A stretch of 57,504 nucleotides of DNA from a virus (lineage: Duplodnaviria > Caudoviricetes), in IMG/VR virus record IMGVR_UViG_3300048577_000448, positions 1 through 57,504 of that record, one strand, 5' to 3'. Below the pieces are notes generated by a model. That model was not told where the DNA came from, made no database searches, and saw only the letters and a program-made list of their open reading frames with translations. Shown here piece after piece: positions 19,944-54,594 of the stretch. The translations under genes and the position numbers were made by a program. Every line of letters begins with the position of its first letter. The stretch's first letter is position 1.

Positions 19944-20118
19944 CCATGCTGCGCCAGCCCGAATCAGAGCGCCGTCGTGTGCGGGATAATGCCTAATCCA
20001 TCCGTGCCCGCCAGGATCGTTACGAGGCCCGCAAGCGCGTCATCGCGGAGACGGCCGTGGACGCAGACGACTACGACGCCAGGGTTCGGGAGCTGGTGAT
20101 GGAGATGGGGATATAATT

Positions 20119-32476: not shown

Positions 32477-32914
32477 ATGAGCGAGAATAGAGATATGGAT
32501 TTGGACGCCATCGAAACGTCTTTCCGAAATAACGCCGACAAAGACTGGGAAGGCGGCCTCCAGACGCGTTTCGCTGTAAATGGGTTGGTTGTTTTAGGGG
32601 AGCACCTTGTTTCCAGGGTGCGGGAGTTGGAGGAGGCTTTGGCCCGTCTGTTCTCTCGGACAGGCACGGGCATGGATTGGACGAATGGCGAGGGATTGGA
32701 AATTATCACTCGGGCCAATAACGCGCTTATTGGGAAATCCATTCCTCCGCTCAACCGCCTTGACGATCTCGAAAACGACAACGCCGCCCTCCGTCTCGCC
32801 GCGACCGAGCTTTACGAGTTCGTCACCCACGACTGCGGCATCGAGTCGCAGGGCATGGACGCGATTTACAGGATGGCGAACGTGTTGGGGGTGGTGAAGG
32901 AGGTAAAGTTTTAA
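32477..32914 (+). CDS. Hypothetical protein (Ead-like)
   Basis: MDLDAIE...LVSRVRELEEAL pattern; start approximate. Confidence 0.5.
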   Translation: MSENRDMDLDAIETSFRNNADKDWEGGLQTRFAVNGLVVLGEHLVSRVRELEEALARLFSRTGTGMDWTNGEGLEIITRANNALIGKSIPPLNRLDDLENDNAALRLAATELYEFVTHDCGIESQGMDAIYRMANVLGVVKEVKF

Positions 32915-37735: not shown

Positions 37736-38302
37736 GTGAAGATAATCCTGTGTGACCTGAACCCTGCCATGGTCGAAGCATGGCGTAGTGTATCCATGCC
37801 GGATGGCGTGAGTGTCGTCCGGGCAAACATTCTCGACCTTGCCGCCGATGCCATCGTGTCCCCAGCCAACAGCTTCGGCTTTATGGATGGCGGCATAGAC
37901 CTTGCCTATTCTCAGCGCTTTGGCTGGGGCGTCCAGAGAGACTTGCAATCGTTTATCAAGCAACTTTCTGGTGAGCTTCTAGTTGGTCAGACAATCGTTA
38001 TCAGCACAAACGATAGGTCTATCCCCAGCCTTATTTCCGCCCCAACCATGCGCGTTCCAATGCAACTGTTTGACGGCACGAATGTTTACCTGGCTACCAG
38101 GGCGGCCATTTTGACTGCCAAAGAGTGTGACTTTGGTTCCATCCTCATGCCGGGCATGGGAACAGGTTGCGGAGGTCTGGATTGCACGGTTGCGGCAAAA
38201 GCCATGAGAAAGGGAATTTTCGACGCCATTCACGGCCTTGACTTCCCGCAGTCATGGCACGAGGCGGCGCAAAGCCACGCTCGGCAGACAGGGGCGGTAT
38301 AG
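37736..38302 (+). CDS. Macrodomain (ADP-ribose hydrolase) protein
   Basis: DAIVSPANSFGFMDGGIDLA, APTMRVP, PGMGTGCG. Confidence 0.92.
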   Translation: MKIILCDLNPAMVEAWRSVSMPDGVSVVRANILDLAADAIVSPANSFGFMDGGIDLAYSQRFGWGVQRDLQSFIKQLSGELLVGQTIVISTNDRSIPSLISAPTMRVPMQLFDGTNVYLATRAAILTAKECDFGSILMPGMGTGCGGLDCTVAAKAMRKGIFDAIHGLDFPQSWHEAAQSHARQTGAV

Positions 38303-39387: not shown

Positions 39388-39459
39388 ATGGCCAAGAAAT
39401 CCACTCCGAAGTCCAAACCGATGCCCAAGCCCCCGAAGAAGGGCGGCAAGGGCTGCTAG
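39388..39459 (+). CDS. Lys/Pro-rich micropeptide MAKKSTPKSKPMPKPPKKGGKGC
   Basis: 23-codon ORF starting right after the previous stop, with phage-like codon usage. Confidence 0.5.
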   Translation: MAKKSTPKSKPMPKPPKKGGKGC

Positions 39460-39500
39460 AGCCAGACCAACCCGCCCCACGCGGGAGTCAATAACACCAT

Positions 39501-39533
39501 GGGCACAGGACGTGCCCCGAGGCCAGGAGGGCC
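39501..39533 (+). promoter_or_regulatory. Twin GGA-loop hairpin leader (scaffold)
   Basis: GGGCAC-AGGAC-GTGCCC then GGCC-AGGAG-GGCC (Shine-Dalgarno in the loop). Confidence 0.75.
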
Positions 39534-39536
39534 ACC

Positions 39537-40685
39537 ATGGAACTTAACCAGACCGGGGAGTCCCAGCAGACCAACCCCGCGACCACCGCGCCGGACTCCG
39601 GGCTGATGAGCCAGGAACAACCGACTCGCAAGTCTCACGAAGACGATTTTGCCGCGCTTATGGACAGCGCGTCCGCGCGTATGGCTGGTGTGCCTCCGAA
39701 GCAGCCCGAGCCGGCCCCTGCCCCGCAGCAGGACAAGCCGGCCGAGGTTGCCGAGGACAAGCCCGCAGCCGAGCCGGAGCAGACTACCCCTGAAGCGCCC
39801 AAGGCCGACGAACAGCAGGTCCAGCCGCAGCCCGAAACACCGCGCATCGTAAAACTGCGTGTGGACGGTCAGGAAATCGAAGTCCCTGAAGACCGTCTCG
39901 TCTCGCTGGCGCAGCAGGGACTTGACTACACCAAAAAATCGCAGGCCCTTGCCGATCAGCGCCGGCAGATGGAGGCTTGGCAAGCGGTTATCAACCGAGT
40001 CCAGACCGACCCCGCCTTTGCCGCGCGATTCCAGGGCCTTTTTGTCGAGCAGCCGCAGCAGCCCCAAGCCGTCGCGCCCGCGCCCCAGGAGACGCCGCCG
40101 GATGACCCGGTGGACCGCCTGAAGTGGGAGATTACCCGAGAGGCCGTGGCAAAGGCCCGGGAAGAAATCCTGGGAGAAGTTCGGCCCATGACGGAGCAAC
40201 AGGCGGCTATCCAGCACGCCATGCGGCTTCAGGCGGTCAAAAGCGACGTGATGCGTGACCCGGCCTATTCGGACACCATGCAAATGGTCCGTAGCTACGT
40301 GGAGAGCCAGCCGATGGCCTTCCGTGACCGCATCTACCGGACGCTGGACCAAGACCCCCAAGCCTTTATGGAGGTCTACGGCCAGGCGCGAGATCGCGTG
40401 ATGGCGATGCGTCAGCAGTTACCCCAGGCGCAGCCGCAGCCCGTCCAGCCGCAACAGCCACAAACCCCGCCGCAGCCCCAGCAGGTCGAGCGCAGGGTTA
40501 CCCCCCGCGAGGCTCCGAAGCTGGAGAGCGCCGGCCAGGGTGTTCCGCAAACAACCGAAAGTGCCGCCCGCGCGCAGTCTTTGAAGGACATTCGCAAGCG
40601 GGTGTTTAGTGGAAAGAGCACGGCCAGCGACCTTGGAGCCTTCCTTGAGGCCACCGGGGCCATTGGCCGCATGACCCAACGATAA
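39537..40685 (+). CDS. Scaffolding protein
   Basis: Acidic low-complexity N-terminus, VKLRVDGQEIEV...QQGLDYTKKSQALA; directly upstream of the capsid gene. Confidence 0.85.
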   Translation: MELNQTGESQQTNPATTAPDSGLMSQEQPTRKSHEDDFAALMDSASARMAGVPPKQPEPAPAPQQDKPAEVAEDKPAAEPEQTTPEAPKADEQQVQPQPETPRIVKLRVDGQEIEVPEDRLVSLAQQGLDYTKKSQALADQRRQMEAWQAVINRVQTDPAFAARFQGLFVEQPQQPQAVAPAPQETPPDDPVDRLKWEITREAVAKAREEILGEVRPMTEQQAAIQHAMRLQAVKSDVMRDPAYSDTMQMVRSYVESQPMAFRDRIYRTLDQDPQAFMEVYGQARDRVMAMRQQLPQAQPQPVQPQQPQTPPQPQQVERRVTPREAPKLESAGQGVPQTTESAARAQSLKDIRKRVFSGKSTASDLGAFLEATGAIGRMTQR

Positions 40686-40690
40686 ACACC

Positions 40691-40725
40691 GCTCACAGGA
40701 CGTGAGCGAGTACGCCAGGAGAGGC
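40691..40725 (+). promoter_or_regulatory. Twin GGA-loop hairpin leader (major capsid)
   Basis: GCTCAC-AGGAC-GTGAGC then GCC-AGGAGA-GGC. Confidence 0.75.
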
Positions 40726-40727
40726 AT

Positions 40728-40892
40728 ATGCCCGACGTTACCACTTCCAGCTATACCAGCGAGTCGACCGGCGTCCGCACCATGGGTGAAACCATTTTCG
40801 AGGACGTCGAAGGGACTATTCAGCTCATCAGCCCGGCCGACACGCCGTTTCAGGCCAGCATCGGCATGGAAAAGGCGACCAATATCTTGCAT
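40728..40892 (+). CDS. Major capsid protein, exon 1 (55 aa)
   Basis: MPDVTT...EDVEGTIQLISPADTPFQASIGMEKATNILH matches the N-terminus of SU10/DUF5309-type capsids; not in the ORF track. Confidence 0.9.
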
Positions 40893-41775
40893 TGACACAT
40901 TGGTGCAAGTAAAATATGGCTATATGCGGGAACACCCTTAGAGCTTTAGATGCCGAAGGTGCAAAAATGCTAAAGATTGGGCAATCCGCAGGGAAGAGTT
41001 ACGCGTATTTGCTTGGCGTTTATTTGGGTGACGGATGCGTCACGAACACCGGAAGGTACCCGATGTTTAGGCTCAACACGATAGATGCTGATTTTGCCGA
41101 TGCCACAAAAGCGGCCCTGGCAGACATTACAGACAGACATGTCGGTATCAGCGTTTACGCCGTGAAGAAGAGCTCAAAGCCTAACAACGACCTTCATTGT
41201 GGCGACCCCGAAATTTGCGCCAACCTGAAAGAAGTGACCCAAGACAAACAGATCATCCCGTTGTTTGTTTTCGAGTGGCCCAAAGAACTTCGTATGTCCT
41301 TCGTTGAAGGGATAATGGACAGCGAGGGGTATGTGGCAGAAAACAAGCGATGGGACACGGCTTGCAGCCGGTATTTTATGGGTTTTAAATCGTGTGACGT
41401 TTGGGTCAACGATTTCCATAAGATCCTGACTGGACTTGGTGTAAGGACTGGAGTCATTACTGCTGAGAAGCCGAGAAAGGAAGGATATAAGACCCCTTAT
41501 AGGTTTTATATCAAAATGCAGTCTTGGGTTGATTCTGGATTGAAGTTCAACATTGCGAGAAAGCAGAACAGGGTTGACGAATGGGCCGCAAACCCACGTT
41601 ATACCGAGCGCAAAGTTGGACCGCGTAGGCTCCCCTCAGAGACTACATGCCGTACAGCCGCTTAGGCGGTTGGTGATATAGTCCGACCTCTGGTGAGAGC
41701 CAGAGATCATGTCAGAAATGGCATGACGCCGCGAAAGCGGTTAGTAGGGTTGCCTCGCCCGAAAGTAACAGAACG
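40893..41775 (+). ncRNA. Group I self-splicing intron (883 nt)
   Basis: P1 CUUGCAU/GUGCAAG with U-G at the splice site; P3 UAUGGC/GCCGUA; P4 UGCGGG/UCCGCA; R UCAGAGACUA (41636-45), S GAUAUAGUCC (41675-84); P8 and P9 hairpins; terminal G41775. Confidence 0.93.
40916..41665 (+). CDS. Intron-encoded LAGLIDADG homing endonuclease
   Basis: Two motifs AYLLGVYLGDG and SFVEGIMDSEG; alternative start at 40967. Confidence 0.88.
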   Translation: MAICGNTLRALDAEGAKMLKIGQSAGKSYAYLLGVYLGDGCVTNTGRYPMFRLNTIDADFADATKAALADITDRHVGISVYAVKKSSKPNNDLHCGDPEICANLKEVTQDKQIIPLFVFEWPKELRMSFVEGIMDSEGYVAENKRWDTACSRYFMGFKSCDVWVNDFHKILTGLGVRTGVITAEKPRKEGYKTPYRFYIKMQSWVDSGLKFNIARKQNRVDEWAANPRYTERKVGPRRLPSETTCRTAA

Positions 41776-42570
41776 GAATGGTTAGAGGACGAGCTTGAAA
41801 CCCCCACCGGCTCCAATGCCGCCGTGGAAGGCGCTGATGCCGTGGCCGCCGAAATGCTGCCGCCCGAGCGCCTGTCCAGCCACACGCAGATCGTGGAAAA
41901 GACCTTCAAAATGAGTGGCACGATGGAGGCCGTCAACACCATCGGTCGCCAGGATCACGCCAAGTACCTGCTGGGAAAGAGCCTCAAGTACCTGAAGACC
42001 GAGATCGAAAAGATCATCATCAACAACGCCACCGACTCGGCCGGCAGCGCCACCACCGCCCGTACCACCAAGGGTCTGGACGGTTGGGTTTCGACCAACG
42101 ACAAGTCGTATGCGTCCTACAGCGCCAACAACGACTTCGACGAAACCAAGTTCATGGCGATGGCCGAGGCTGCCTATTCGGCCGGCGGCTACCCGTCCAT
42201 CCTGATGGTTCCGCCCAAGCAGGCCGTGGTCATCAGCAACTGGGACCAGGCCGGCAAGATCACCGTCAACCAGGAAGCCACATCCAAGACCCTGACTATG
42301 GCGGTCATGGTTCTCGAAACGCCGTTTGGCATCGTGAACGTGGTTATCGACAAGTGGATTTCCGAGGACACCGACAGCGGAACCAAGTACGACAGAATCT
42401 TCCTCTACGATCCCGAAAAACTCGCCATCGCCTGGCTCCGCAAGCTCAAGACCGTGCCTCTCGCCAAGACCGGCGACAACACGAAGTACCAGAGCCTGGG
42501 CGAGTTCGCTTTCGTGTGCCGCAGCGAGAAGGCTCATGCGAAGTGCAAGAAGTGCGCTCAGCCGTACTAG
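41776..42570 (+). CDS. Major capsid protein, exon 2 (spliced product 319 aa)
   Basis: EWLEDEL..P..NAAVEGAD, HTQIVEK...SGT, LAKTGD; joins exon 1 in frame as ..LH|EW.. Confidence 0.92.
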   Translation, partial: EWLEDELETPTGSNAAVEGADAVAAEMLPPERLSSHTQIVEKTFKMSGTMEAVNTIGRQDHAKYLLGKSLKYLKTEIEKIIINNATDSAGSATTARTTKGLDGWVSTNDKSYASYSANNDFDETKFMAMAEAAYSAGGYPSILMVPPKQAVVISNWDQAGKITVNQEATSKTLTMAVMVLETPFGIVNVVIDKWISEDTDSGTKYDRIFLYDPEKLAIAWLRKLKTVPLAKTGDNTKYQSLGEFAFVCRSEKAHAKCKKCAQPY

Positions 42571-42596
42571 CCAGCACTAGCAACTAACTGACCATG

Positions 42597-42632
42597 GCGG
42601 CCCTGTCTGTGTAGCGGGTGGGGCCGCTTTTT
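42597..42632 (+). terminator. Terminator after the capsid gene
   Basis: GCGGCCC...GGGCCGC followed by TTTTT. Confidence 0.75.
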
Positions 42633-42645
42633 AAAAGGGGGAGAC

Positions 42646-42969
42646 ATGCACGAGAATTTGGACATCCAGGCCGGGGCCAAGGAATTTACCGTCAAGCAGC
42701 ACGTTGTGCAGAACAACATGGACATTATGGCGTTCAACAAGATGTTACGAGCCCTTCCGCCTGAGCAGCGCAAGAGTTTCAAGAAGCAGACGCGCCTTTT
42801 GGCCGTCATTCCGTTTTACGCGCCCAAGGGCATGTTCCAGGCCGACGAAACCGCGCTGGGCATCACGCGCGACAAGGACAAGCTGGACTACCTGTTGCGC
42901 GAGGCCCCGGAGTTCCGGGCGGTTGACGATCCGCTCATGCGGGGCGGGAAGATTACGATTACGGGGTAG
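42646..42969 (+). CDS. Hypothetical head-completion-region protein
   Basis: GGGGGAG Shine-Dalgarno, 107 aa after the capsid gene. Confidence 0.7.
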   Translation: MHENLDIQAGAKEFTVKQHVVQNNMDIMAFNKMLRALPPEQRKSFKKQTRLLAVIPFYAPKGMFQADETALGITRDKDKLDYLLREAPEFRAVDDPLMRGGKITITG

Positions 42970-42991
42970 CTTAACCGGAGTCTAAAGCCAT

Positions 42992-43855
42992 ATGGATGCA
43001 TCGAAGCTTTTAAGGGGCCTTGGCCTCATGACCGCCGGGGCTGGCTCTGCGGCTTACGGCATGTCGCCGGACGATTCGGAGGCGGCGAGACTCTTCCATG
43101 GGACAAACATAGAGGGTTTACGAGGAATAAGAAAAACCGGAAAGATCAACTCTCCTGCGTATTTTACACCAGAGCGCAGCGTAGCAGAAGATTACGCTCG
43201 TGGAGGACCGGTTATTTCGGTTGAAGTCCCAGAAAACAAACTTAACATTGATTACGAGTCTAAAAATTGGGGCGACTTCATTGATGATAGCATGGGCGAA
43301 GATACGGTAGCCAATGCACTCCGTGATGGTGCTGCTGTCTATGCCATAGAAGACATCCCCGTTGGCGGGGGTAAGTTTTATTATCGAGGCAAGACAGGAT
43401 ATTTACCTGTCATTCTTGGCCTAACTGGATCCGGAGCTTACGGTCTCATGGGTGGTGACAATGATGCGGAGGCCAGCACGGCCACCAACCTCGAAAAGGC
43501 CCTTGTCCGTGACACAGAAGCCTCGGCCAAGCCCAAGGCGTGGGCCAAGGACGCCGGGAGTAACACCCCCAACGTCGCCCAAGCTGTCGCGCCATCCGAT
43601 CCATTCACCCCGTCGCCGTCGCAACTCGCGACCACGGCTGCCCTTGTCGCCGCGCTCAAGTCCAAAGACGCGCCCCTGGAAGACACCTATCAGCCGGCCG
43701 ACATGTTGACGGCGTTCGCGACGGGCGGAGGGAGTCTCGCGCAGCGCCTTGCACAGGCCGGACTTGACCCCATTTTCAGTGCCGGTATGGAATACCTACC
43801 CCGAGTAGCCGACGCGATTAATCCCCGCAACATTGTCATGGGCCTCATGCGATGA
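42992..43855 (+). CDS. Protein with an ADP-ribosyltransferase-like (H-Y class) domain
   Basis: LFHGT and AYFTPERSVAEDYA motifs, bounded by two hydrophobic-(S/A)EA repeats. Confidence 0.6.
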   Translation: MDASKLLRGLGLMTAGAGSAAYGMSPDDSEAARLFHGTNIEGLRGIRKTGKINSPAYFTPERSVAEDYARGGPVISVEVPENKLNIDYESKNWGDFIDDSMGEDTVANALRDGAAVYAIEDIPVGGGKFYYRGKTGYLPVILGLTGSGAYGLMGGDNDAEASTATNLEKALVRDTEASAKPKAWAKDAGSNTPNVAQAVAPSDPFTPSPSQLATTAALVAALKSKDAPLEDTYQPADMLTAFATGGGSLAQRLAQAGLDPIFSAGMEYLPRVADAINPRNIVMGLMR

Positions 43856-44349
43856 CTGATCTCCGCGACCACGACGTTTTGCTAGTTGTCGGCAAGTCTC
43901 CCGAGCGATGGGACGACGTGGAGCGGTTTTGGGAACTCGGGATAGATCATGACGTGTGCTGCATCAATCACACGGGAATTATCTACCCATGCCCGTTCAA
44001 GCACTGGTTTTCCCACCATCCAGCCGAACTTGTGGAGGGTATGGCTCCTTACAACCCCGGGGCACGGCTGCACACGACTGGACCGCCAATGAGCGGAATA
44101 AAGCGATGGAAAATCGTTGGGACAAAGGGAAGTTCGTCTCTCCTTGCCGCTCGATGCGCGCTGCACTTTTGGGGCTACAAACGGGTCGTCGTTGCCGGCG
44201 TGTCGCTCGACGGAGAGTACCACAAATTTTTTTACAACCATTGGGTGCAGGCTATGCCTGAAATATCAGGCCGAGTCCGTTCTATGAGTGGTCACACAAT
44301 GCGGCTGCTTGGAGAGCCAACCGTGGAGTGGGCGACGTCTACTGATTAG
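43852..44349 (+). CDS. GT29/Maf/MptE-like Rossmann-fold protein
   Basis: LVVGKSP, VCCIN, GSSSLLA...GYKRVVVAGVSL. Confidence 0.55.
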   Translation: MTDLRDHDVLLVVGKSPERWDDVERFWELGIDHDVCCINHTGIIYPCPFKHWFSHHPAELVEGMAPYNPGARLHTTGPPMSGIKRWKIVGTKGSSSLLAARCALHFWGYKRVVVAGVSLDGEYHKFFYNHWVQAMPEISGRVRSMSGHTMRLLGEPTVEWATSTD

Positions 44350-44387
44350 GACCGCCATCATGGATGGTCCGCGCACGCCAGGAGGGC
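44349..44387 (+). promoter_or_regulatory. Twin GGA hairpin leader (adaptor)
   Basis: GGACC..CCATCATGGATGGTCC then GCC-AGGAG-GGC. Confidence 0.65.
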
Positions 44388-44394
44388 ACAGCGC

Positions 44395-45003
44395 ATGTTA
44401 ATATCTTCACTTATTGACGATATACGCCTGGAGATTACGGATTCTGGCAGCAGCCGTTTCACGGACGCGCAGATCCTTTCCGTCATCAAAAAAGGGCTAG
44501 TCAGACTGGCGCACATCCTTTTTCGCAACGACATTGAGGCTGGCCGCCTGATCTACGAGTTCAGCACAATTGCTGGCGTCTCTGATTATCCACTGCCCGT
44601 CGACTTCATGAAAGACGTCGGACTTTACAAGCCAAATGGTGTTTCGTTGCCGTGCCAGACAGACAAGCAATGGGAAACCATCGTTTCTGCCAAAGAAACC
44701 TCCGTATACATAATCCGAGCTGGAACGCTTTACATCGCCGGGACTCCAGAAGCTTCAATGGAAATGAAGCTAATATACTGGAAGCTACCAGAAGTAGTTG
44801 ACATTTCCGTTTCCGATGACATGCCTTACGACGGGAAATTTGACTACATGGTTGCAGAATATGTGGCGATGCGTCTCAAGAACATTGACGAATCAGACGT
44901 CAGTCGGGACGTTGAACTTTTGGCCGACATGGAGAACCAGATCCTTGCTACATACGGGAGCCTGACTCCGACTGTCGTACGTCAACGCGGGTGGTTGCCG
45001 TAA
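44395..45003 (+). CDS. Head-tail adaptor protein
   Basis: 202 aa, TIAGVSDYPLPVDF; position before the nozzle. Confidence 0.7.
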   Translation: MLISSLIDDIRLEITDSGSSRFTDAQILSVIKKGLVRLAHILFRNDIEAGRLIYEFSTIAGVSDYPLPVDFMKDVGLYKPNGVSLPCQTDKQWETIVSAKETSVYIIRAGTLYIAGTPEASMEMKLIYWKLPEVVDISVSDDMPYDGKFDYMVAEYVAMRLKNIDESDVSRDVELLADMENQILATYGSLTPTVVRQRGWLP

Positions 45004-46499
45004 TGGCCTACAAATCAAGCAAACACCGCAATGTCACCCAACTGACGCTTACCTTCAATGGTGGGCTCAACGCTGCACAGTCTGGGACGAATATTGGAGA
45101 CAATCAGCTCCAAATTTGCAGCAACTTTGTCTATGCGAACAATCAGGACTTCCCGACCGTAAGGAATGGAGTTGTTCTGAATGGTGTTGCGCCTATTACG
45201 GAAGACGGAGAAAACGTCCCTATTGACAAACTGCACTATTACGTCAAGGACGCTTCGACTTCCTGGCTGGTCGCAGCAATCGGCGGGAGTCTTTATCGCC
45301 TGAATGGTTCTTCGTGGAGTCTTATTGGTGCGTTGAACTCCGTCGGCGTCATCCCGTGCATGTTGACCTATGGCGGGAAGCTTATCGTTGCCGATGGCGG
45401 TACATCGCTAAAATACTGGGACGGGACAACCTTCAGCTCTATTTCTGGCTCTCCACAGTACGCCACGGCCCTGGCCGAGATTGGTGGCCGGCTGGTTTCG
45501 AATAGCAAGGGAACCGGCGAATGGGACGGGGTCTTTTTTTCCAAGATCTACGACGAAACGGGGTGGGACCCAAACAACGGAGCTGTGACCGTTCGCGCCG
45601 GCTACAAGGATGCGCTGAACGTCGTGGCCTTTGGCGTCATGGGAACTGACCTGATCGTTTTCAAGGGTGGTCACGCCAAGCGGGTGTACCGAATCACCAC
45701 GGCTGGAGCGACCTCGACGTGGACGGTATCGCTGCTTATGTCGAATAGCACGGCCAGCGAAGCAGACGCCGTCGCCAATGTCGTGAACGATCTGATTTTT
45801 GCCGACGATTTTGGTATGAACTCGGTGAAAGCTGTCGACACCTACGGCGACCTTGCACAGGCCATGCTTGGCGTTCCAATCAACTCGCTTCTCAATGGCA
45901 AGCGTAGCAAGGAGCTTACGTTCTCGCCATTGTTTGGGATGCTCTTTGCCCTGTTCGCCGGATCAATAGATATCTACGTCTACCACCCCCACAACGGGGC
46001 TTTTACGACGATCAATGTCGGCGAATTGCAGATGAACAGTATCTGCGACACAAAGTCTACGGTCTATCTGGCTGGGCAGAACGGGAACCTTTATCAGTTC
46101 GTGGACGATGACGCCGATCAGCTTGAGACTGGCGTGGTTACGAGAATCCCGTGCTGGTTGAAATCGAAGTCGTTCACCTTCCCCGGCGACGTAGTAATTC
46201 GCAGAACCAGGGCCTACGTTGACGTTTTGACGCCAAATAGCGGGTCAATTTCGGCTGTAGGCAAGGATAACTATACGGAAACTCCGTTGTTTTCATGGGA
46301 ACCGTCGGCAGACAACTACATTTACAACGCAACAGGATACATATACGATGCCACCGAGTACATTGGTGGTGAGTCTGTTGGATACAGCGACTCAAACTCA
46401 CGATGGAGAAACGCCGCTTTGAGCTTCGTCTTCCGGGTTACGAGAGGACGAGTCAACATCAAAAACATTCTTGTCGATCTCGCTTTAGTCAACGGCTAG
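45003..46499 (+). CDS. Tail nozzle / DNA stabilisation protein (P22 gp10-like)
   Basis: FNGGLN start, beta-propeller-like composition, about 500 aa. Confidence 0.7.
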   Translation: MAYKSSKHRNVTQLTLTFNGGLNAAQSGTNIGDNQLQICSNFVYANNQDFPTVRNGVVLNGVAPITEDGENVPIDKLHYYVKDASTSWLVAAIGGSLYRLNGSSWSLIGALNSVGVIPCMLTYGGKLIVADGGTSLKYWDGTTFSSISGSPQYATALAEIGGRLVSNSKGTGEWDGVFFSKIYDETGWDPNNGAVTVRAGYKDALNVVAFGVMGTDLIVFKGGHAKRVYRITTAGATSTWTVSLLMSNSTASEADAVANVVNDLIFADDFGMNSVKAVDTYGDLAQAMLGVPINSLLNGKRSKELTFSPLFGMLFALFAGSIDIYVYHPHNGAFTTINVGELQMNSICDTKSTVYLAGQNGNLYQFVDDDADQLETGVVTRIPCWLKSKSFTFPGDVVIRRTRAYVDVLTPNSGSISAVGKDNYTETPLFSWEPSADNYIYNATGYIYDATEYIGGESVGYSDSNSRWRNAALSFVFRVTRGRVNIKNILVDLALVNG

Positions 46500-46531
46500 C
46501 AGGATGCCGGCCGAATTTGCCAGGAGGGCGA
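46494..46531 (+). promoter_or_regulatory. Twin GGA-loop hairpin leader (first ejection protein)
   Basis: GGCTAGC-AGGAT-GCCGGCC then TTGCC-AGGAG-GGCGA. Confidence 0.7.
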
Positions 46532-46532
46532 A

Positions 46533-47681
46533 ATGGCTTCAAACATTTATGGCATGACCGGCCTTATCGGCAGTCTCGCGGCCAACAACTACGATCTCTA
46601 CGGGACGACGCAACTCCCGAGTACGTGGACGGGCAGCGCCAAGACCTCATCCAGTGTCAGCAACCCCTTCAGCGGGTTGTCATACTCCGATCCAGGCGAC
46701 TACCAGAAATACGACAGTTGGGCCAACTGGACCGGAGCCGACAAGACCTACCGCAACCAGTACAACGACAACGGATACAGCCTGGGCAAGGCCAAGGAGT
46801 TTTACCAGCAGCCGAGCAACGGCGATTGGGCGAGCTTCCAGAACGCCTTGCAGCAGCCCGGTGAAATCGCAGCCCAGCAGGCCTACGATAAGTCGAAGGC
46901 GGCGCTTGAGGAGTGGGCCGGGGCCGGAGGTCTTTACGGTTCGTCGATCATGACGAAGCAGGCCAAGGACAGCGTGTATCAGCCCTATATGGACGCTCTG
47001 TCGACCAATGCCGCCAATGCCGCCTCCACGCGCTATCAGGCCCAGGACGCGAGCAGCCAATATCTCGCCAATCTCGCTAACAACATCTACGGGACGCGGA
47101 CCAACGAGTGGGGAAACCTCGACGCCCGCAACCTCCAGGAGGCGTTGGCGCAGAATCAGTTCAACCAGACACAGGACCAGCAGAAGGCCGCGCAGCAGCA
47201 GTACCTCAACAGCTACAACCTGTCTCGGTCGAACAACCAAAACAATTTCAACCTGAACAAGTCGCAGGGCGATGCTCAATGGAACCAGTGGGCGACAAAC
47301 CTTGACAACGCGATCATGCAGGAAGCCTACAACAACACCGTGGCTGGCACGAAGTGGAACACCTCGGAGCAGCAGCGAATCTACGAAAACAATTACAATC
47401 TGTGGAACAACATCAATCCGACCGAGGAAGAGAAGACCCAGAACGAGACGGCAAGTCTGGCGGCCGGGCGCGACAAGGCGAACAGCACCAATTGGGGCTC
47501 CCTAATTGGTTCCGGCGTTGGCTTGCTTGCGGCCCCGATGACCGGCGGCACGAGCCTTCTTGGTTCGCTCACCAGCGGTCTTGGCGGGTTGTTCGGGTCT
47601 AGCAGTGGATTCTCCGGTGGTGGATACGGAGAGCTTGGCAACGCTATGTTTAACTCCACTCCGTCTGCCTACTGGAAGTGA
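46533..47681 (+). CDS. Internal virion / DNA ejection protein
   Basis: N/Q/A-rich, GGLYGSS, C-terminal Gly-rich hydrophobic segment. Confidence 0.7.
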   Translation: MASNIYGMTGLIGSLAANNYDLYGTTQLPSTWTGSAKTSSSVSNPFSGLSYSDPGDYQKYDSWANWTGADKTYRNQYNDNGYSLGKAKEFYQQPSNGDWASFQNALQQPGEIAAQQAYDKSKAALEEWAGAGGLYGSSIMTKQAKDSVYQPYMDALSTNAANAASTRYQAQDASSQYLANLANNIYGTRTNEWGNLDARNLQEALAQNQFNQTQDQQKAAQQQYLNSYNLSRSNNQNNFNLNKSQGDAQWNQWATNLDNAIMQEAYNNTVAGTKWNTSEQQRIYENNYNLWNNINPTEEEKTQNETASLAAGRDKANSTNWGSLIGSGVGLLAAPMTGGTSLLGSLTSGLGGLFGSSSGFSGGGYGELGNAMFNSTPSAYWK

Positions 47682-47686
47682 TAACC

Positions 47687-49450: not shown

Positions 49451-50856
49451 TGGAATTTGACCAACGGTTGCTTGACCCTACCGTACCCAAGGACTCTCAG
49501 CCGCAATCTGACCAGTTGCCGGCATGGGCTGGTGGTTTTGACCAGGGATCTATTGACCCGACCGTCAAGAAGGCGACCCAACCTGAGCAACAGCAAGAAC
49601 AACCGCCCATGTCTTGGCAGGACGCGGCGTGGCAGGCCCTACGGAACACGCCCAAAAGCGCCGTCATGTACGGAAAAAGCCTCGTCGATCCGGTGTTACA
49701 TCCGGTCGATACGGCCAAGGCCGTTGGAAATGTCGCTGTCGGCGCAGCCCAATCTGCGACAGGTTCCACGCTGGGCATGGACGACAAGACAGCTTTTGCC
49801 CAGGCCATCGGTGATTATTACAAAAATCGCTATGGCGGAATGGAGAACATCAAAAAGACCGTGTCGGAAGACCCGGTTAGTGTGGCCGGCGATATTGCGG
49901 CCGTCCTTTCGTTGGGCGGAGGGGCACTGTCAAAGGCCGGGAAGTTGTCCGACATTACATCCGCTGCAAGGGCCGGTGGCCTTATGAGCCAGGCCGCGAC
50001 GTGGATTGACCCCATGACTATGGCCGTGCGCCCAATTGCCGCGACTGGATTGCCAGAAAAGCTGTATGGTGCGGCACTCAAGCCGTCTACGACGCTCTCG
50101 CCGGAAGAGCGGGCGGCCGTCATTTCGGCGGGAATGGGCGAGAAAATCCCGGTCAGCTACGGCGGGGCGTTGAAAAATGGAGACATACGACGGGATCTTG
50201 CCGGCCAGCTTGAGAAAGCGCTGACATCTGCCAACACGCCGATGATTGATCCTTTAGCTGCCGCCGATAGGATGCGCGGGACGGTCCAGGACGCCCTTAC
50301 GTCTTACAACCCGACGGTGAACCTCAAGAAGGTGTCGGACGTCCGTGACAACTTTTTGACCGACCCGCTCATCCCTGACCTGCTCACCCCGAAGCAGGCC
50401 AATGAAATGAAACAGGGCATCTATCGGGAGGTAGAAAGCGCCTATGGGAATATGCGGGCTCCATTCGCATCCCAGGCCAAGAAGGACTTAGCTCGTGGTC
50501 TTAAAGAAGAGGTGAACGCTGCCGTCCCTGAGGTAGCTCCAATCAATGACCGCCTGTCCACACTGATCCAACTAGCGGAACAACTTGATCCGGCAGCGAA
50601 CCGTGTGGCGAACAGGAACCCCATAGGCCTGACTGCCACTACCGCCGCAGCCGCTGGCGCTCCTGTTGGTCGTCCACTTTCGTCTGGAGCTCTTGGTGTT
50701 TTACTTTCTTCCCCGTGGTGGGGATCACGGGCGTCTATGCTTCTGGATAATGTCCGGAATGGAATTGTTGGGCCAAATATCAACGGGTATGGCTTTGACC
50801 CTGCCGTTCGTGGTCTTATGAGCGGGTCCGATGTCGCTTACGATCAACGCCAATAA
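49450..50856 (+). CDS. Internal virion / DNA transfer protein
   Basis: 468 aa, Ala/Gly-rich helical; third gene of the ejection cluster. Confidence 0.65.
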   Translation: MEFDQRLLDPTVPKDSQPQSDQLPAWAGGFDQGSIDPTVKKATQPEQQQEQPPMSWQDAAWQALRNTPKSAVMYGKSLVDPVLHPVDTAKAVGNVAVGAAQSATGSTLGMDDKTAFAQAIGDYYKNRYGGMENIKKTVSEDPVSVAGDIAAVLSLGGGALSKAGKLSDITSAARAGGLMSQAATWIDPMTMAVRPIAATGLPEKLYGAALKPSTTLSPEERAAVISAGMGEKIPVSYGGALKNGDIRRDLAGQLEKALTSANTPMIDPLAAADRMRGTVQDALTSYNPTVNLKKVSDVRDNFLTDPLIPDLLTPKQANEMKQGIYREVESAYGNMRAPFASQAKKDLARGLKEEVNAAVPEVAPINDRLSTLIQLAEQLDPAANRVANRNPIGLTATTAAAAGAPVGRPLSSGALGVLLSSPWWGSRASMLLDNVRNGIVGPNINGYGFDPAVRGLMSGSDVAYDQRQ

Positions 50857-50886
50857 AAAAAGGGCCGTCCAGATGGGCGGCCCTTG
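50856..50886. terminator. Terminator between convergent genes
   Basis: AAAAAAGGGCCGTCC-AGAT-GGGCGGCCCTT. Confidence 0.75.
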
Positions 50887-50898
50887 TCGTTTTAGCGC

Positions 50899-51828
50899 TT
50901 AAACGCTAAGCGTTTTCCATCCGTCGATAACCCTCCCGACATTGACCATGACCAAAAAGTCACGCTCAAACGACGATTCAACCCGGCCAATGATTTTGCG
51001 AAGCATTTCCACAAACTCGGTGTGAAGGCTTCGTTGTCCTGGATAGTCGTGACCATCATAATGTATGGCATCAAGCTTGCTGTGCATTTTTTCCCTGACT
51101 GCCTTGAGCCTGTTGTCGATCTCCATGATTTCCATGGTCGTGTCGTCCATGTAGATCTTCCAGGCCGGCGTAGGGGGTACCGTCCTGTCGTCCTTCATCG
51201 GCAGATCCGGCGCGTCCACACTGCGAATCTGCATAGCGATCACGTAGTCCCGGGCCTCCCCAAACTGGCCGACGGGAAGCTCCGAGTATCGAGGGATCTT
51301 GAACTTGCGCTGAAGCCGCGTCCAAATTTGCGAGAACACCTTGGGTTTCGCGGAGTCAGGGAAGGCCGACACCTTCGCCTGGACGAGTTCCTTGATTTCT
51401 TGTTGCATGGCGGCCGAAATGGGGCCGTCTAGGACCGGGCCGGTGGGAATTCTTCCCGAAAGCTCGGCCTCCATGGCATTGAAAGCCTGGATGTAGGCAA
51501 TCTTCCACTTGATGGCCTTTGGTCCGGTGAAGCCCATGGCTACGATCACGAAGCCGTCTCGGGTGAGGAGGTAGGCTGGGAGTCTTCGCCCGGTCGAGTC
51601 GGTGTATTCACTGCGCTCAAAATTGAGCGCACCGAACGATTCCGGTGAGTTGCGAACGATGGCCTCGATGGACCTGATGACGTTATTGTGCTGACGCCCG
51701 AAGTGGTCGGCCACTTGACGGGACGACACCATAGGCCGGCCATTAAGCATTTGAAGGACAGGGCCAACCGGGGAGGACTGATTGGCGTTGATGCTGACGA
51801 CGTTATCGGTTAATTTGGTCTGAGCCAT
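50899..51828 (-). CDS. Rha-family antirepressor / regulatory protein
   Basis: VSSRQVADHFGRQH.NVIRSI, LTRDGF...AMGFTG.KA.KWK.AYI.AFNAME; second ant-like domain. Confidence 0.9.
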   Translation of the reverse strand: MAQTKLTDNVVSINANQSSPVGPVLQMLNGRPMVSSRQVADHFGRQHNNVIRSIEAIVRNSPESFGALNFERSEYTDSTGRRLPAYLLTRDGFVIVAMGFTGPKAIKWKIAYIQAFNAMEAELSGRIPTGPVLDGPISAAMQQEIKELVQAKVSAFPDSAKPKVFSQIWTRLQRKFKIPRYSELPVGQFGEARDYVIAMQIRSVDAPDLPMKDDRTVPPTPAWKIYMDDTTMEIMEIDNRLKAVREKMHSKLDAIHYDGHDYPGQRSLHTEFVEMLRKIIGRVESSFERDFLVMVNVGRVIDGWKTLSV

Positions 51829-51902
51829 GGATTCCTCCGCTTTAGGAACCAGGGTTAGGCCTCGGCCTGGGTGTTACCAGCACCCGGTCGAGGCTGTTTT
51901 TT

Positions 51903-52067
51903 TTAAGACGACTCCGATTCTCTTTTTGCCATCCTGGCCTCCATGCACTCCATAAAGACAGCCTTGATCGTCTTCCCTTCGTCAACCAGAAAATGCTTGA
52001 GACGACGATGGAAGTCCTTGTCGACCTGAATGGTCACGGTGGTGAGTTTAGGTTTCGTCTTTTCCAT
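51903..52067 (-). CDS. Ribbon-helix-helix (Arc/Mnt-like) regulator, 54 aa
   Basis: MEKTKPKLTTVTIQVDKDFHRRLK...GKTIKAVF; below the ORF-track cutoff; TTGACA box upstream. Confidence 0.7.
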   Translation of the reverse strand: MEKTKPKLTTVTIQVDKDFHRRLKHFLVDEGKTIKAVFMECMEARMAKRESESS

Positions 52068-52148
52068 AAGCACTCAATTAAGTGTGCCATTAAAAAATGT
52101 CAACACCGACCCACAAAAAAGCCCCCCGGTTTCCCGAGGGGCGGCTGC

Positions 52149-52796
52149 TTAAAATGTCGTGCAATCAATTTTATCGCCATTTTTTCGGCACGTTGTCTGC
52201 CTTGGCTGATTGGCTTGTCGGTTCGCCTGCCTTATGGCTTCTTGCTGCTGCATAGCCTGTCCGGCGCTTTGAAGCGCAGCACCGAAAGCCGCCGCTGCCT
52301 GTTGGGACTTTATCCTCTCCTGTTCTTCGTAGTCTCGTTTTTTAGCCAGCGAAGACTCTTTTGCAGAGTCCAAGGCCCTGTTCATTGTGTCTATGTAAGT
52401 CTGAAAATTAAGCTGGCATTTATAAAGCCTGGACAAGTTATAGTCTTCTATGTTCAAAAACGACATTACTTCAGATGAATCATAGAAACTGAATTGATTT
52501 GCTAGGCTGTAATATCTGGACTTTGCAACTAAAATTTTCTCCCTCAATACGTTTATTGCTTGTTTTTCAGTGTCATCAGGGCATGATTCTCCGACAGTTG
52601 TCGATACTATCCCTCTGTTGCCGAAGAATGGAACCTTTCCCCTTATCGGGTCAAGCCTCTTGTCTGAAAATTCTGTCGCCATCAATTGCTCTGTTTGCGC
52701 GACTTCTTTTCTTACAGCCGCCTGTTGCGCCGCTCCGCACCCGAACAACCCCAATGCCGTCACCATCAACGCTGCCGCCAGCATAGCCCGCACCAT
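52149..52796 (-). CDS. Lipoprotein moron (superinfection-exclusion candidate)
   Basis: Signal peptide with LFGC lipobox, AT-richer body. Confidence 0.65.
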   Translation of the reverse strand: MVRAMLAAALMVTALGLFGCGAAQQAAVRKEVAQTEQLMATEFSDKRLDPIRGKVPFFGNRGIVSTTVGESCPDDTEKQAINVLREKILVAKSRYYSLANQFSFYDSSEVMSFLNIEDYNLSRLYKCQLNFQTYIDTMNRALDSAKESSLAKKRDYEEQERIKSQQAAAAFGAALQSAGQAMQQQEAIRQANRQANQPRQTTCRKNGDKIDCTTF

Positions 52797-52983
52797 GATC
52801 GCCTCCAGTTTTGCACTACATGGGGCGTGTCACTCGATATGTCAATTGCCGATGAAAATTTTGACTACCCTATGCAACGCAGTTGCATTTTGTTTAAGGA
52901 CGTGGCATCGTCATCGCGTCCGCTACGGTGCGGATTGTTCTATGTCCCGCCAGAATGGCAGGGCACAAGCACAAGGACGTGCG

Positions 52984-53421
52984 ATGCGTAAACTGATTCC
53001 ACCTGCTATCTATGCCATATCGGCCGTTATGGTCGTTATACTCTGCGCTCCATGTGCTTTCTGCGAAGACCTGCCAGCCACGGTTATCAAGGTTCTCGAC
53101 GGCGACACCATCAAGGTTTCGTTGTATGGCCCTATGCCCGAGCTTTTCCGTACGCAATCTGTGCGCCTGCGAGGGTGCGATACGCCCGAGAAAAATGACA
53201 AGCGCCCCGAGGTTGCGGCTCTCGCCAGAATGGCAACCGACTTCACGACTTCGCGTTTCTCGCCCGGCGATTCCATCATGCTTTACGACGTTGATAACGA
53301 CAAATACGGCGGCCGGATCTTGGCCCATGTGTTTGTGGGCGGGCAAGACTTGTGCGACTCGCTCATGAGTCACGATCCGCCACTAGCCAAGCCATATCAA
53401 GGCGGCCACAAGGAATGGTAG
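52984..53421 (+). CDS. Thermonuclease (SNase) family protein with a signal peptide
   Basis: VLDGDTI, VRLRGCDTPE, DKYGGRILA. Confidence 0.88.
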   Translation: MRKLIPPAIYAISAVMVVILCAPCAFCEDLPATVIKVLDGDTIKVSLYGPMPELFRTQSVRLRGCDTPEKNDKRPEVAALARMATDFTTSRFSPGDSIMLYDVDNDKYGGRILAHVFVGGQDLCDSLMSHDPPLAKPYQGGHKEW

Positions 53422-53474
53422 CCGCCTAGTCACTTCCCCCAGCCAGGACGGCAGGGGCCACACGCCAGGAGGGC
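53401..53474 (+). promoter_or_regulatory. GGA-loop hairpin leader (collar fibre), three hairpins
   Basis: GGCGGC..AAGGAA..GCCGCC; GCC-AGGAC-GGC; GCC-AGGAG-GGC. Confidence 0.7.
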
Positions 53475-53477
53475 AAC

Positions 53478-54194
53478 GTGGCATACACCCGAGAGACAAC
53501 GGTCAACGCTGGACCCCAGCAAGACAATGTCAAGACCGGCATCTTAAAGCTCGACCAAGACCTTACAAACGCCTATGTCGGTCTTAACGATCTACTTGAA
53601 CAAATTTCAGGAAAGATCAACGTCAGCGAAAAAGGGCTTGCTAATGGTCTGTGTCCGCTAAATTCGTCCAGTAAAGTTGATTCAGGCTACCTTCCGTCTA
53701 TCCCGTCAAATCTTCTCCCGACCACCGTTATGCTGATGGTTCCCATCGGCGGAATGATTCTGTGGGCCACGGATACTGCTCCTGCCAACTACCTCCCCTG
53801 CGAGGGCGGCGAGTACAGCACGACTGAATATGCTGCGCTATACGCTGTCATTGGTACTAGGTACGGAGCCGGCGACGGGACGTTCAAGGTTCCAGACTTC
53901 CGTGGTCTGTTTGTCCGTGGCTGGTCCCACGCGTCAAACGTTGACCCTGATGCCGGGAGTCGTACGGACCGTGGCGATGGGACAACCGGCGACAATATCG
54001 GCACGAAGCAAGGGACTCAGAACCTTGCACATACTCACACAACGCAAATAGCTCACAGCCAGATGCAATCTGGCGGGTCTTATGTCCTGTCGCCTACGGG
54101 AAGCGGACCATTCCCTTACACGTCAAACGAATCTGGCGGGAGCGAATCAAGACCAAAGAACATCTCTATGCTCTACATCATCAGGTATCAATAG
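53478..54194 (+). CDS. Tail fibre protein with a phage tail-collar domain
   Basis: PIGGMILW, YAALYAVIGTRYG, FKVPDFRGLFVRGW, ESRPKN...YIIRY. Confidence 0.88.
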   Translation: MAYTRETTVNAGPQQDNVKTGILKLDQDLTNAYVGLNDLLEQISGKINVSEKGLANGLCPLNSSSKVDSGYLPSIPSNLLPTTVMLMVPIGGMILWATDTAPANYLPCEGGEYSTTEYAALYAVIGTRYGAGDGTFKVPDFRGLFVRGWSHASNVDPDAGSRTDRGDGTTGDNIGTKQGTQNLAHTHTTQIAHSQMQSGGSYVLSPTGSGPFPYTSNESGGSESRPKNISMLYIIRYQ

Positions 54195-54203
54195 GAGGCC
54201 ACA

Positions 54204-54590
54204 ATGAGCGCCAGGGACCAGAGGGCCAAAGTTGATATCAAGATTTACGAGAACGGATCGTACAGGAAGACTTTTCAGTGGAAGGTTTCTGGAGTTCCGG
54301 TCGACATTACCGGCTATTCAGGACTCATGCAGATCAGGGAGAAGCTCACATCTTCATCTCCAATTCTGACACTGACAACCGCCAACGGTGGCGTAACCAT
54401 CGTCGACTCTACTAATGGAATATTTGCGATAACCATAAAAGACGAAGTCTCTGCGTCCATATGCGCTGAGCACAAGGACATTAAAGGCGTCTACGACCTG
54501 AAGCTTTCTGGTCCAGACCAGCCGACAGACGACGGGACAATGCTCCTTTATGGGGAGTGCTACATCGTCGCCGCCGTGAGCAGGAGCTAG
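54204..54590 (+). CDS. Tail fibre adaptor-like protein
   Basis: PVDITGYSGLMQIR, LTTANGG, GVYDL. Confidence 0.6.
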   Translation: MSARDQRAKVDIKIYENGSYRKTFQWKVSGVPVDITGYSGLMQIREKLTSSSPILTLTTANGGVTIVDSTNGIFAITIKDEVSASICAEHKDIKGVYDLKLSGPDQPTDDGTMLLYGECYIVAAVSRS

Positions 54591-54594
54591 AGAT

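Follow-up and report, generated by a model that had tools for sequence, protein, structure and literature searches.

Among described systems, the closest to the one reported here is the 5'UTR of C. jejuni flaA, in which two ANGGA stem-loops, the second placed on the ribosome-binding site, show compensatory stem changes and CsrA represses translation, as described in PMC4894983, where the B. subtilis hag and Borrelia flaB leaders are cited as comparable CsrA-FliW cases. The site bound by RsmE and CsrA is given as the consensus A/U-CANGGANG-U/A (PMC6849547) and by SELEX as RUACARGGAUGU with the GGA in a loop (PMC4347634), and a dimer can engage two such sites over a reach of 10-63 nt, with an optimum at 18 nt (PMC3856055). 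CsrA is also described as repressing the lysis gene cel of ColE7 (PMC2896534), and a csrA allele is reported in 30 of 2517 phage genomes, along with an effect of CsrA on prophage activation in Serratia (PMC7366521).

The window analysed here, the whole 57,504-nt stretch, is the record of a 57.5-kb provirus with no usable host flank, in which twin-hairpin leaders precede five late genes, those of the scaffold, capsid, adaptor, first ejection protein and collar fibre. Among sequencing runs, no RNA run was listed for it, and small shares only (0.06-0.07) turned up. Each leader comprises a hairpin with an AGGAY loop and then a short hairpin that carries the Shine-Dalgarno (SD) sequence AGGAG in its loop, at a GGA-to-GGA distance of 18-22 nt. 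The leaders form part of a real, conserved and covarying RNA motif family restricted to late genes; judged from their sequence, the chance that they serve as translational operators through which host CsrA represses virion genes seems about even.

Twin-hairpin leaders of the late genes

The leaders lie behind a stop codon, in gaps that measure 33-151 nt, and coupled genes are without them:

39501..39539, + strand: scaffold leader; hairpin 1 at 39501-39517 (GGGCAC-AGGAC-GTGCCC), hairpin 2 at 39521-39533 (GGCC-AGGAG-GGCC, the loop being the SD), ATG at 39537
40690..40730, + strand: major-capsid leader; hairpin 1 at 40690-40708 (loop AGGAC), hairpin 2 at 40714-40725 (GCC-AGGAGA-GGC), ATG at 40728
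44349..44397, + strand: adaptor leader; hairpin 1 at 44349-44370 (CATGGATG), hairpin 2 at 44377-44387 (loop AGGAG), ATG at 44395
46494..46535, + strand: first ejection-protein leader; hairpin 1 at 46494-46512 (weak), hairpin 2 at 46516-46532 (loop AGGAG), ATG at 46533
53405..53480, + strand: collar-fibre leader; extra GGA hairpin at 53405-53419, hairpin 1 at 53438-53456 (loop AGGAC), hairpin 2 at 53464-53474 (loop AGGAG), GTG at 53478

The initial annotation had placed two-part leaders before these five genes, and all five are where it put them, with the SD in the second loop and the GGA of hairpin 2 looped in the MFE fold of each. Its statement that the upstream hairpin presents a GGA loop holds for four of them and fails for the adaptor, in which the GG of the GGA (G18/G19) is paired in the stem in the MFE fold. 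Both loops form in the MFE fold of the scaffold leader, and hairpin 1 of the ejection-protein leader is a weak 4-bp stem with the GGA inside a 9-nt loop. The fold z-scores are modest (-1.2 to -2.7), and in several leaders an outer helix pairs the start codon. In the order listed, the GGA-to-GGA spacing is 18, 20, 19, 21 and 22 nt, and in all five 7-11 nt separate the end of the GGA in the AGGAG(A) loop from the start codon that follows.

The protein encoded after the scaffold leader has a head scaffolding match (phrog_3927), the ORF downstream of the capsid leader is exon 1 of the capsid gene (phrog_1328), the adaptor protein is PF24175 SU10_adaptor, and the collar-fibre protein carries PF07484 Collar and phrog_523. 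Family searches gave no match for ORF 46533-47681, the first of three presumed ejection-protein genes, and the gene after it has a transglycosylase/internal-virion-protein match. The blocks headed by the leaders are the scaffold; the capsid; the adaptor and an overlapping next gene; the three ejection-type proteins; and the collar fibre with the tail-fibre genes.

The pattern GCCAGGAG occurs nine times in the window, where 2.34 occurrences are expected and none of 100 shuffles reaches nine; five of the nine are the leaders. A literature-derived pair of CA(N)GGANG sites 16-24 nt apart occurs four times, always on the + strand and always at a leader, against a mean of 0.38 and a maximum of 3 in 300 dinucleotide shuffles. 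Single CA(N)GGANG sites number 141 against 68 expected, an excess found on both strands and therefore treated as compositional. The covariance model R2, built from 14 leaders of other prophages only and holding no window sequence, finds its top four window matches at 39500, 40690, 53438 and 46494 (E 1e-6 to 4e-4, filters off), with 34.5, 27.2, 25.7 and 24.5 bits for the scaffold, capsid, collar-fibre and ejection-protein leaders, respectively. R2 did not recover the adaptor leader at E<=10; the covariance model R1 scores it at 22.8 bits, the site being itself an R1 training sequence, and the scaffold leader at 46.2 bits. By a crude gene list of our own, the motif stands at 5 of 22 late starts and 0 of 61 others (Fisher p 0.0009); neither R1 nor R2 finds it at the early genes of the window, where the initial annotation had not seen it either.

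That annotation had further pointed to two single sites:

52969..52986, + strand: single site on the SD of a staphylococcal-nuclease-like gene (PF00565 SNase); GCAC-AAGGAC-GTGC at 52969-52982, ATG at 52984
54579..54597, + strand: weak single site before a tail-fibre gene; AGC-AGGA-GCT, a 3-bp stem only with a 4-nt loop, ATG at 54595

The nuclease site is real and constitutes the fifth-best R2 match (15.6 bits, E 0.06), whereas the tail-fibre sequence, present as described, is matched by neither R1 nor R2.

Other look-alikes in the window were set aside. The leader of the AAA_24 early gene (9812-9866, - strand), proposed by eye as a sixth site, has GGA hairpins of another form and a different fold, and is missed by both models; a generic GGA-hairpin scan gave 437 matches and is too permissive to inform. 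Against Rfam, including the CsrB/RsmX/Y/Z sponge RNAs, no leader of the window gave a gathering-level match, a search at E<=10 over 39400-54700 returned nothing at the leaders, and the sole Rfam match was to rsmX (11.6 bits, E 5, in a 201-nt search). A scan of the window placed no + strand terminator-like or promoter-like (sigma-70) site at any leader, and the leaders are not intrinsic terminators because they have no U-tract; the one terminator-like site found, at 40709-40689 (- strand), is the capsid hairpin read as its reverse complement, on the strand that carries no genes.

A covarying motif family in related prophages

Fourteen more copies of the motif lie in six related Desulfovibrionaceae prophage loci, before scaffold, capsid and other late genes. 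These loci were reached only via a portal alignment and a capsid search in 401 family genomes; megablast and tblastn against INPHARED phages found no relatives, and single-protein scans of IMG/VR gave distant matches or none. Over the 19 leaders (five from the window and 14 from relatives), 79.5% of cells pair against 53.5% in shuffles (0/500), a percentage that is partly by construction because the leaders were picked for showing the pattern. The covariation score is 0.582 against 0.167 in shuffles (0/500) and 0.07-0.15 in slid controls, and both sides change in 8 of 10 base pairs, so that the earlier remark on stems that differ yet pair extends to the related prophages.

The stems of hairpin 2 vary (GCC/GGC, GGAC/GTCC, GGCC/GGCC, TAC/GTA, TCAC/GTGA) around a constant A(N)GGAN loop. 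The GGA of loop 1 is invariant, the closing C-G pair is kept in 17 of 19 first hairpins and 16 of 19 second hairpins, the GGA-to-GGA distance is 18-22 nt throughout, and 18 of the 19 leaders match CA(N)GGANG (N optional) at both sites at that distance. Most loops are pentaloops (CAGGANG), one base below the published hexaloop consensus. The strict 8-mer frame is found in a minority only, namely adaptor hairpin 1, the nuclease site and some loops of relatives; an exact fit to the 8-mer is seen at the nuclease site and in the ACGGAG loops of two capsid leaders, those of L010 and L015.

Stems conserved by covariation, in intergenic elements at the 5' end of each translational block, might also be expected of RNA processing or stability elements, whose hairpins would flag sites of endonuclease cleavage along the late polycistron or shield processed 5' ends, the GGA being incidental. 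Phage late transcripts are processed at intergenic hairpins elsewhere, as at the RNase III sites of T7. Stems of 3-8 bp are, however, too short for RNase III, and this reading would not account for the invariance of the GGA loops, the CA..G frame, the fixed spacing or the position of the second loop over the SD. It is the most improbable of the readings considered here.

The motif is patchy in its distribution. Of 401 family genomes, 29 gave a capsid match; 4 of the 26 capsid-gene leaders read from these have the motif, as do 2 of 6 portal-linked loci, and the closest capsid relatives in the family search (L055-L060, 55-57% identity) are without it; in L056, L059 and L060 the SD sits in a hairpin loop with no upstream GGA hairpin. 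In relatives L100 and L101, the tail-fibre leader retains a hairpin 1 whose loop is devoid of GGA, which suggests that hairpin 1 has a role of its own.

Both variants speak for a CsrA-independent, cis-acting initiation module, in which hairpin 2 would keep the SD accessible in a long GC-rich polycistronic mRNA and hairpin 1 would insulate it from the upstream ORF and offer an SD-like AGGA as a 30S standby, giving strong, context-independent translation of uncoupled genes. The AGGA is indeed complementary to the anti-SD, and the leaders stand exactly where de novo initiation is needed, after stop codons and not at coupled genes, and they precede the genes of scaffold and capsid, the virion's most abundant proteins. 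Such a module nevertheless does not require a fixed GGA spacing, a start codon paired in an outer helix is unsuited to an enhancer, and the motif is not at host genes (R1 matched in 2 of 151 sampled family genomes, one match phage-like and one apparently spurious). CsrA/RsmE recognises just such conserved (A)C...G(U) closing pairs and an invariant GGA constrained within a pentaloop above a GC stem of 6-8 bp, a geometry that would be poor for pairing with 16S rRNA. On balance, the initiation module appears rather unlikely.

In the genomes searched, the motif is confined to phage DNA and is not a general host feature. All nine R1 matches at E<=1e-3 in four prophage-bearing genomes fall at training leaders of the related prophage loci, followed by three matches of 26-29 bits (E 0.0014-0.008) that are located near those prophages or ahead of a small Cys-rich ORF. 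A pattern scan of IMG/VR gave 46 stretches against about 30 by a rough chance estimate, many of them coding tandem repeats; the clear leaders among them precede capsid, 'MADT..' and Q/N-rich genes of the same phage group. IMG/VR matches upstream of a helicase, a microvirus replication protein and portals belonging to other families form a weak second stem and were not counted as evidence.

Confinement to phage DNA, and a patchiness that fits a lineage-specific accessory system, would equally suit an operator for a phage-encoded RNA-binding protein, be it a late repressor or activator or a structural protein in autoregulation, that reads the AGGAN loop on its C-G closing pair. The MS2 coat protein, T4 RegA and Mu Com act on phage translational operators of this general kind, and many ORFs of the window have no family match. 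Yet no candidate protein was found, and the match to the published specificity of a host protein, together with the host flagellin leaders discussed below, would have to be coincidence. Nor was there a CsrA-like gene, the phage analogue allowed for in the initial annotation: the window has no PF02599 (CsrA) match, and the fetched 20-kb prophage stretches of four genomes (G211, G241, G290 and G157) have no csrA, the single csrA of each genome lying elsewhere. A phage-encoded reader of the loops is improbable.

Host CsrA and the flagellin leaders

Repression by host CsrA, the reading we favour, is supported by the apparent fit of both leader loops, with the N optional, to the published CsrA/RsmE specificity, a consensus derived from gamma-proteobacterial proteins and not from a CsrA of Desulfovibrionaceae. 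The gene csrA is present in all nine Desulfovibrionaceae genomes with related prophages and in 176 of 201 sampled genomes of the family. Related hosts show a flgK/L-csrA-fliW arrangement, fliW adjoining csrA in five of five genomes tested.

The phage leaders also appear to resemble the flagellin leaders of related hosts. Among 26 flagellin leaders in the nine genomes with related prophages, a GGA stands 18-23 nt ahead of the SD GGA in 21, in most cases looped out by a hairpin as judged by eye, and the SD sites of 22 match CA(N)GGANG; the SD is not inside a hairpin, and R1 matched no flagellin leader in five host genomes. An alignment was made of 19 of the 26 distinct leaders, seven having been dropped (no GGA hairpin 18-23 nt upstream, or long flagellin genes), and the literature-derived regular expression was used in place of a flagellin model because MAFFT set the 3' arms of differing hairpin classes out of register.

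If host CsrA does read the leaders, a dimer would bridge the GGA of the upstream loop and that of the SD loop, over 18-22 nt, and so deny access to 30S subunits. Each leader would head a gene block that starts translation on its own, and five operators would therefore gate most virion proteins. Free CsrA would be set by the flagellin/FliW partner switch and through titration by the mRNAs themselves, the likeliest effect being that scarce (leaky) late mRNA is silenced and released once late transcripts are abundant. Some observations stand against CsrA operators: the loops are mostly pentaloops, the adaptor GGA is partly paired, the motif is patchy and R1 misses the flagellin leaders. There is also no obvious benefit in repressing the most-needed virion proteins.

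The CsrA/RsmA-type regulon of the initial annotation accordingly survives in its structural part, with a real motif, an apparent fit to specificity, a covered SD, a flaA-like architecture and csrA in the related hosts; binding and repression by CsrA, and the physiological logic, we infer. The proposed tie to host metabolic state is probably wrong in detail, since with a csrA-fliW pair in related hosts free CsrA should follow the flagellin/FliW partner switch, by the mechanism described in PMC4894983, and not carbon metabolism via CsrB-type sRNAs. More speculatively, a lineage of Desulfovibrionaceae podophages may have copied the flagellin-leader design, so that the FliW-CsrA checkpoint times virion proteins, and abundant late mRNA, each copy carrying five or more high-affinity twin sites, titrates CsrA away and upsets the control of flagellin synthesis; this two-way coupling of motility and morphogenesis, possibly tied to the flagellum in adsorption, we regard as unlikely.

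Significance and comparison with known systems

The literature searched contained no account of phage structural genes bearing CsrA-type sites. If host CsrA binds the leaders, this would, going by that literature, be the first phage with most of its virion proteins placed under a host global translational repressor via one repeated operator. Control of lysis-lysogeny and of the late genes would then gain a post-transcriptional layer, and phage output would be linked to the FliW-CsrA checkpoint in sulfate reducers, a group whose phages have received very little study. The leaders would also provide a compact RNA motif family that covaries, is missing from Rfam and could serve as a query against other phages. 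Should CsrA play no part, a conserved initiation module of twin hairpins, used again at each of five cistrons, would still be a useful and testable phage translational design.

As with ColE7 cel and the csrA alleles of phages and plasmids, the Csr system would here be tied to mobile elements, although those cases involve one lysis gene or a phage-borne csrA, and the present one a multi-gene set of candidate operators on structural genes in a phage in which no csrA was found. The leaders share with the RsmE/CsrA consensus the C-G closing pair, often the next A-U pair, the GGA in the loop and some 18 nt between sites, and differ from it in that most phage loops are without the N (CAGGANG). Unlike C. 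jejuni flaA, a single host 5'UTR, the phage elements stand on five internal cistrons of a late operon, are mostly pentaloops and are packed into intergenic gaps of 33-57 nt, with CsrA binding a prediction here; like that experimentally footprinted leader, they combine twin A(N)GGA loops, the second over the ribosome-binding site, with stems kept by compensation.

Gene organization of the provirus

The 57.5-kb IMG/VR provirus record is 73% complete by CheckV, and the relatives of its portal protein come from Desulfovibrionales genomes and metagenomes. The genes are laid out in the following order.

Gene layout of the window
Left end of the window: integrase-like ORF
Up to ~17 kb, - strand: early genes, including an exonuclease and an AAA_24 protein
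After the early genes, + strand: replication genes, including a primase-helicase
29965-31470: large terminase
35193-37418: portal
39537-40685: scaffold, followed by the split major capsid gene
44395-45003: SU10-type adaptor
After the adaptor: a 498-aa protein, then three proteins, the second with a transglycosylase / internal-virion-protein match
Beyond the Rha/Ant-like gene: staphylococcal-nuclease-like gene, collar-domain fibre and tail-fibre genes

A low-GC island (32914-34640; ~0.50 compared to 0.56-0.62 around it) lies between the terminase and portal genes and carries two ORFs (314 and 261 aa) without a Pfam match, while a gene for a Macro-domain protein (PF01661, E 3e-13; 37736-38302, + strand) is located in the head-gene block between portal and scaffold. 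The ejection-protein block is closed by a strong terminator with an 11-bp stem (50860-50885); beyond it, on the - strand, a divergently oriented gene for a Rha/Ant-like regulator (50899-51828) separates the ejection and fibre modules. The sole Rfam match of the window at gathering score is a DUF3800-VIII RNA (RF03075; 48.8 bits) at 13905-13969 on the - strand.

The major capsid gene is interrupted by a clean 883-nt insertion (40893-41775) that divides it into exon 1 (40728-40892) and exon 2 (41776-42570); in the intact homologue of the related stretch L010, the break would fall between residues 55 and 56. The insert bears an ORF (40916-41665) with a match to the phrog_4645 endonuclease and a weak LAGLIDADG_3 match (21.2 bits, under the cut-off). 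At 41497-41705 it also matches a group I intron, though below the gathering score of 50 (29.3 bits, E 3.4e-5). Such an intron, bearing a homing endonuclease, is the likely identity of the insert. Directly 3' of the capsid gene (42575-42645), a GC hairpin is followed by a T-run, and L010 has a comparable GC hairpin in the corresponding position (19985-20035). This structure, which is absent from the output of the terminator scan, could be a partial terminator setting the ratio of capsid to downstream genes.

Twin-hairpin leaders of the late genes

The initial annotation described two-part leaders upstream of the scaffold, capsid, adaptor, first ejection-protein and collar-fibre genes and read them as operators for the translational repressor CsrA; all five leaders are confirmed as described. 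The gaps upstream of these genes measure 151, 42, 45, 33 and 56 nt, respectively, and the leader fills the entire gap at each except that of the scaffold. Each leader is comprised of a hairpin with an AGGAY loop (hairpin 1), a spacer of 3-8 nt, and a 3-6-bp hairpin (hairpin 2) presenting the Shine-Dalgarno (SD) sequence as an AGGAG(A) loop, with the start codon 7-11 nt past the hairpin-2 GGA in every window leader. The motif GCCAGGAG occurs 9 times in the window, compared to 2.34 expected, and five of the nine occurrences are at these gene starts. Four of the leaders show both loops in their MFE folds, and hairpin 1 of the ejection-protein leader is weak. Fold z-scores run from -1.2 to -2.7. 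At the adaptor, the upstream hairpin is present, but the MFE fold places its first GGA partly in the stem rather than, as had been proposed, in the loop. An outer helix that pairs the start-codon region as well appears in the folds of four leaders and is not kept in relatives.

Single CA(N)GGANG words are twofold in excess across the whole window (141, compared to 68.1 in dinucleotide shuffles; sd 8.0, maximum 92), an excess that is probably driven by codon usage or composition, since the words are nearly equal on both strands (73 on + and 68 on -).

The impression that early genes lack this architecture is borne out by covariance-model searches. The motif is enriched at late gene starts (5/22, versus 0/61 others; p 0.0009, using a crude gene list of our own), and where the gap ahead of a gene is 30 nt or more it is found at 5 of the 9 late genes versus none of 32 others. 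A covariance model built from the 14 non-window leaders only (R2) was searched against both strands of the window with filters off and a shortened calibration, so that its E-values are rough; its top four matches, at 39500, 40690, 53438 and 46494 (E 1e-6 to 4e-4), are followed by the single GGA hairpin on the SD of the staphylococcal-nuclease-like gene (52969-52982; E 0.06), and the adaptor leader was not recovered. The model from all 19 leaders, five from the window and 14 from relatives (R1), gave no sixth site in the window, the next best match scoring 14.7 bits.

Upstream of the early AAA_24 gene (9780-9875, - strand), the leader contains two hairpins: CGGC-AGGAG-GCCG, and one of 9 bp with GGA in its loop region, 20 nt ahead of the SD GGA. 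This leader was rejected as a further site, being different in form and missed by both R1 and R2.

Conservation and phage restriction of the motif

Orthologous scaffold and capsid leaders of the same two-hairpin design, built on other stems, are present in the related stretches L010 (equivalent to L017; portal 49% identical) and L015 (36%). A capsid search was positive in 29 of the 401 Desulfovibrionaceae genomes sampled and, with L062 and L084 (partial) and L076 and L081 (ambiguous start) left out, twin hairpins were found in 4 of the 26 readable capsid leaders (L061, L063, L064 and L065). The 20-kb stretches around these four hold more copies, before the scaffold gene, a conserved 'MADT..' gene and a fibre-like gene. 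The six closest capsid leaders of the family search (55-57% identity) have no twin hairpins.

In an alignment of all 19 leaders, both helices pair in 79.5% of cells, compared to 53.5% in shuffles (0/500), a percentage that is partly by construction because the leaders were selected for showing the pattern; in three leaders a 6-nt second loop shifts the register by one column, and these were scored as unpaired there. Neither the stem variety nor the slid controls owe anything to this selection. In the comparison with related prophages that the initial annotation proposed, the stems differ yet pair, with a covariation score of 0.582 versus 0.167 in shuffles (0/500) and 0.07-0.15 in the slid controls. 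This covariation, together with a promoter/terminator scan, rules out promoter and terminator readings of the leaders. The leaders are an RNA motif family of a phage lineage, which confirms and extends the original observation, and Rfam has no family at them.

In four genomes carrying twin-leader prophages, all nine R1 matches at E<=1e-3 are training leaders of those prophage loci; of the next three (E 0.0014-0.008), two are new and lie beside prophages and one precedes a small Cys-rich ORF. Matches in the Desulfovibrionaceae genome G001 are weak and within coding sequence. Only 2 of 151 sampled family genomes, searched with stricter filters and 42 candidates scored per genome, have a match at E<=1e-3; of the two, one looks spurious and the other is phage-like. 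The element is therefore phage-borne and no common host leader.

A leader with three ACAGGA repeats is common to six low-GC viral contigs from IMG/VR (L156, L158, L159, L163, L173 and L165; GC 0.32-0.40). It precedes a conserved 61-aa ORF in five of them and a 276-aa ORF instead in L165.

Candidate control by host CsrA

The CsrA site defined by SELEX is RUACARGGAUGU, in which ACA and GGA do not vary and the GGA lies in the loop of a hairpin (PMC4347634), while an RsmE-based consensus is given as A/U-CANGGANG-U/A (PMC6849547); the spacing between two sites has an optimum of 18 nt and a range of 10-63 (PMC3856055). Of the 19 phage leaders, 18 show the pattern (A)C-A(N)GGAN-G(U) in each of their two hairpins, at a spacing of 18-22 nt. 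Most phage loops are one base short of the published consensus, which counts against CsrA as the regulator, as do the patchy occurrence of the motif among relatives and two fibre-gene leaders of relatives that keep hairpin 1 without GGA.

The window itself yielded no csrA. The gene is present in all nine genomes carrying related prophages, adjoined by fliW, which encodes the CsrA partner, in 5/5 tested; across the family, 176 of the 201 genomes sampled have csrA. G211, G241, G290 and G157 each have a single csrA, outside the 20-kb prophage stretches analysed. The nine genomes have 26 distinct flagellin leaders, and in 21 of these the SD GGA is preceded at 18-23 nt by another GGA, which by eye mostly lies in a hairpin loop; when compared to the same pattern, SD sites fit in 22/26 and pairs in 12/26. 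R1 gives no match at flagellin leaders in the five host genomes searched, a further point against CsrA.

Control by host CsrA is the best-supported mechanism, a reading drawn from resemblance and judged about equally likely to be right or wrong. A CsrA-independent module, in which the SD is presented in a loop beside an insulating or standby hairpin, accounts equally well for the placement of the leaders at de novo initiation sites. A phage-encoded binder of the leaders, or a role in processing or stability, is also possible.

Full-text literature searches on CsrA in the context of late phage genes, the capsid, prophages, phage infection or lysogeny returned no CsrA-type sites at phage structural genes, and no paper was found treating CsrA, FliW, flagellin and Desulfovibrio jointly. 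Published work covers plasmid- and phage-borne csrA alleles, an influence of CsrA on the activation of prophages (both PMC7366521), the CsrA-repressed lysis gene of ColE7, and defence systems under Rsm control. The nearest parallel to the phage leaders is the flaA leader of C. jejuni, where CsrA footprints both of two ANGGA stem-loops, the second on the RBS, and compensatory changes are described (PMC4894983). The phage leaders, where binding is predicted, share with flaA the arrangement of two GGA stem-loops with the second on the RBS.
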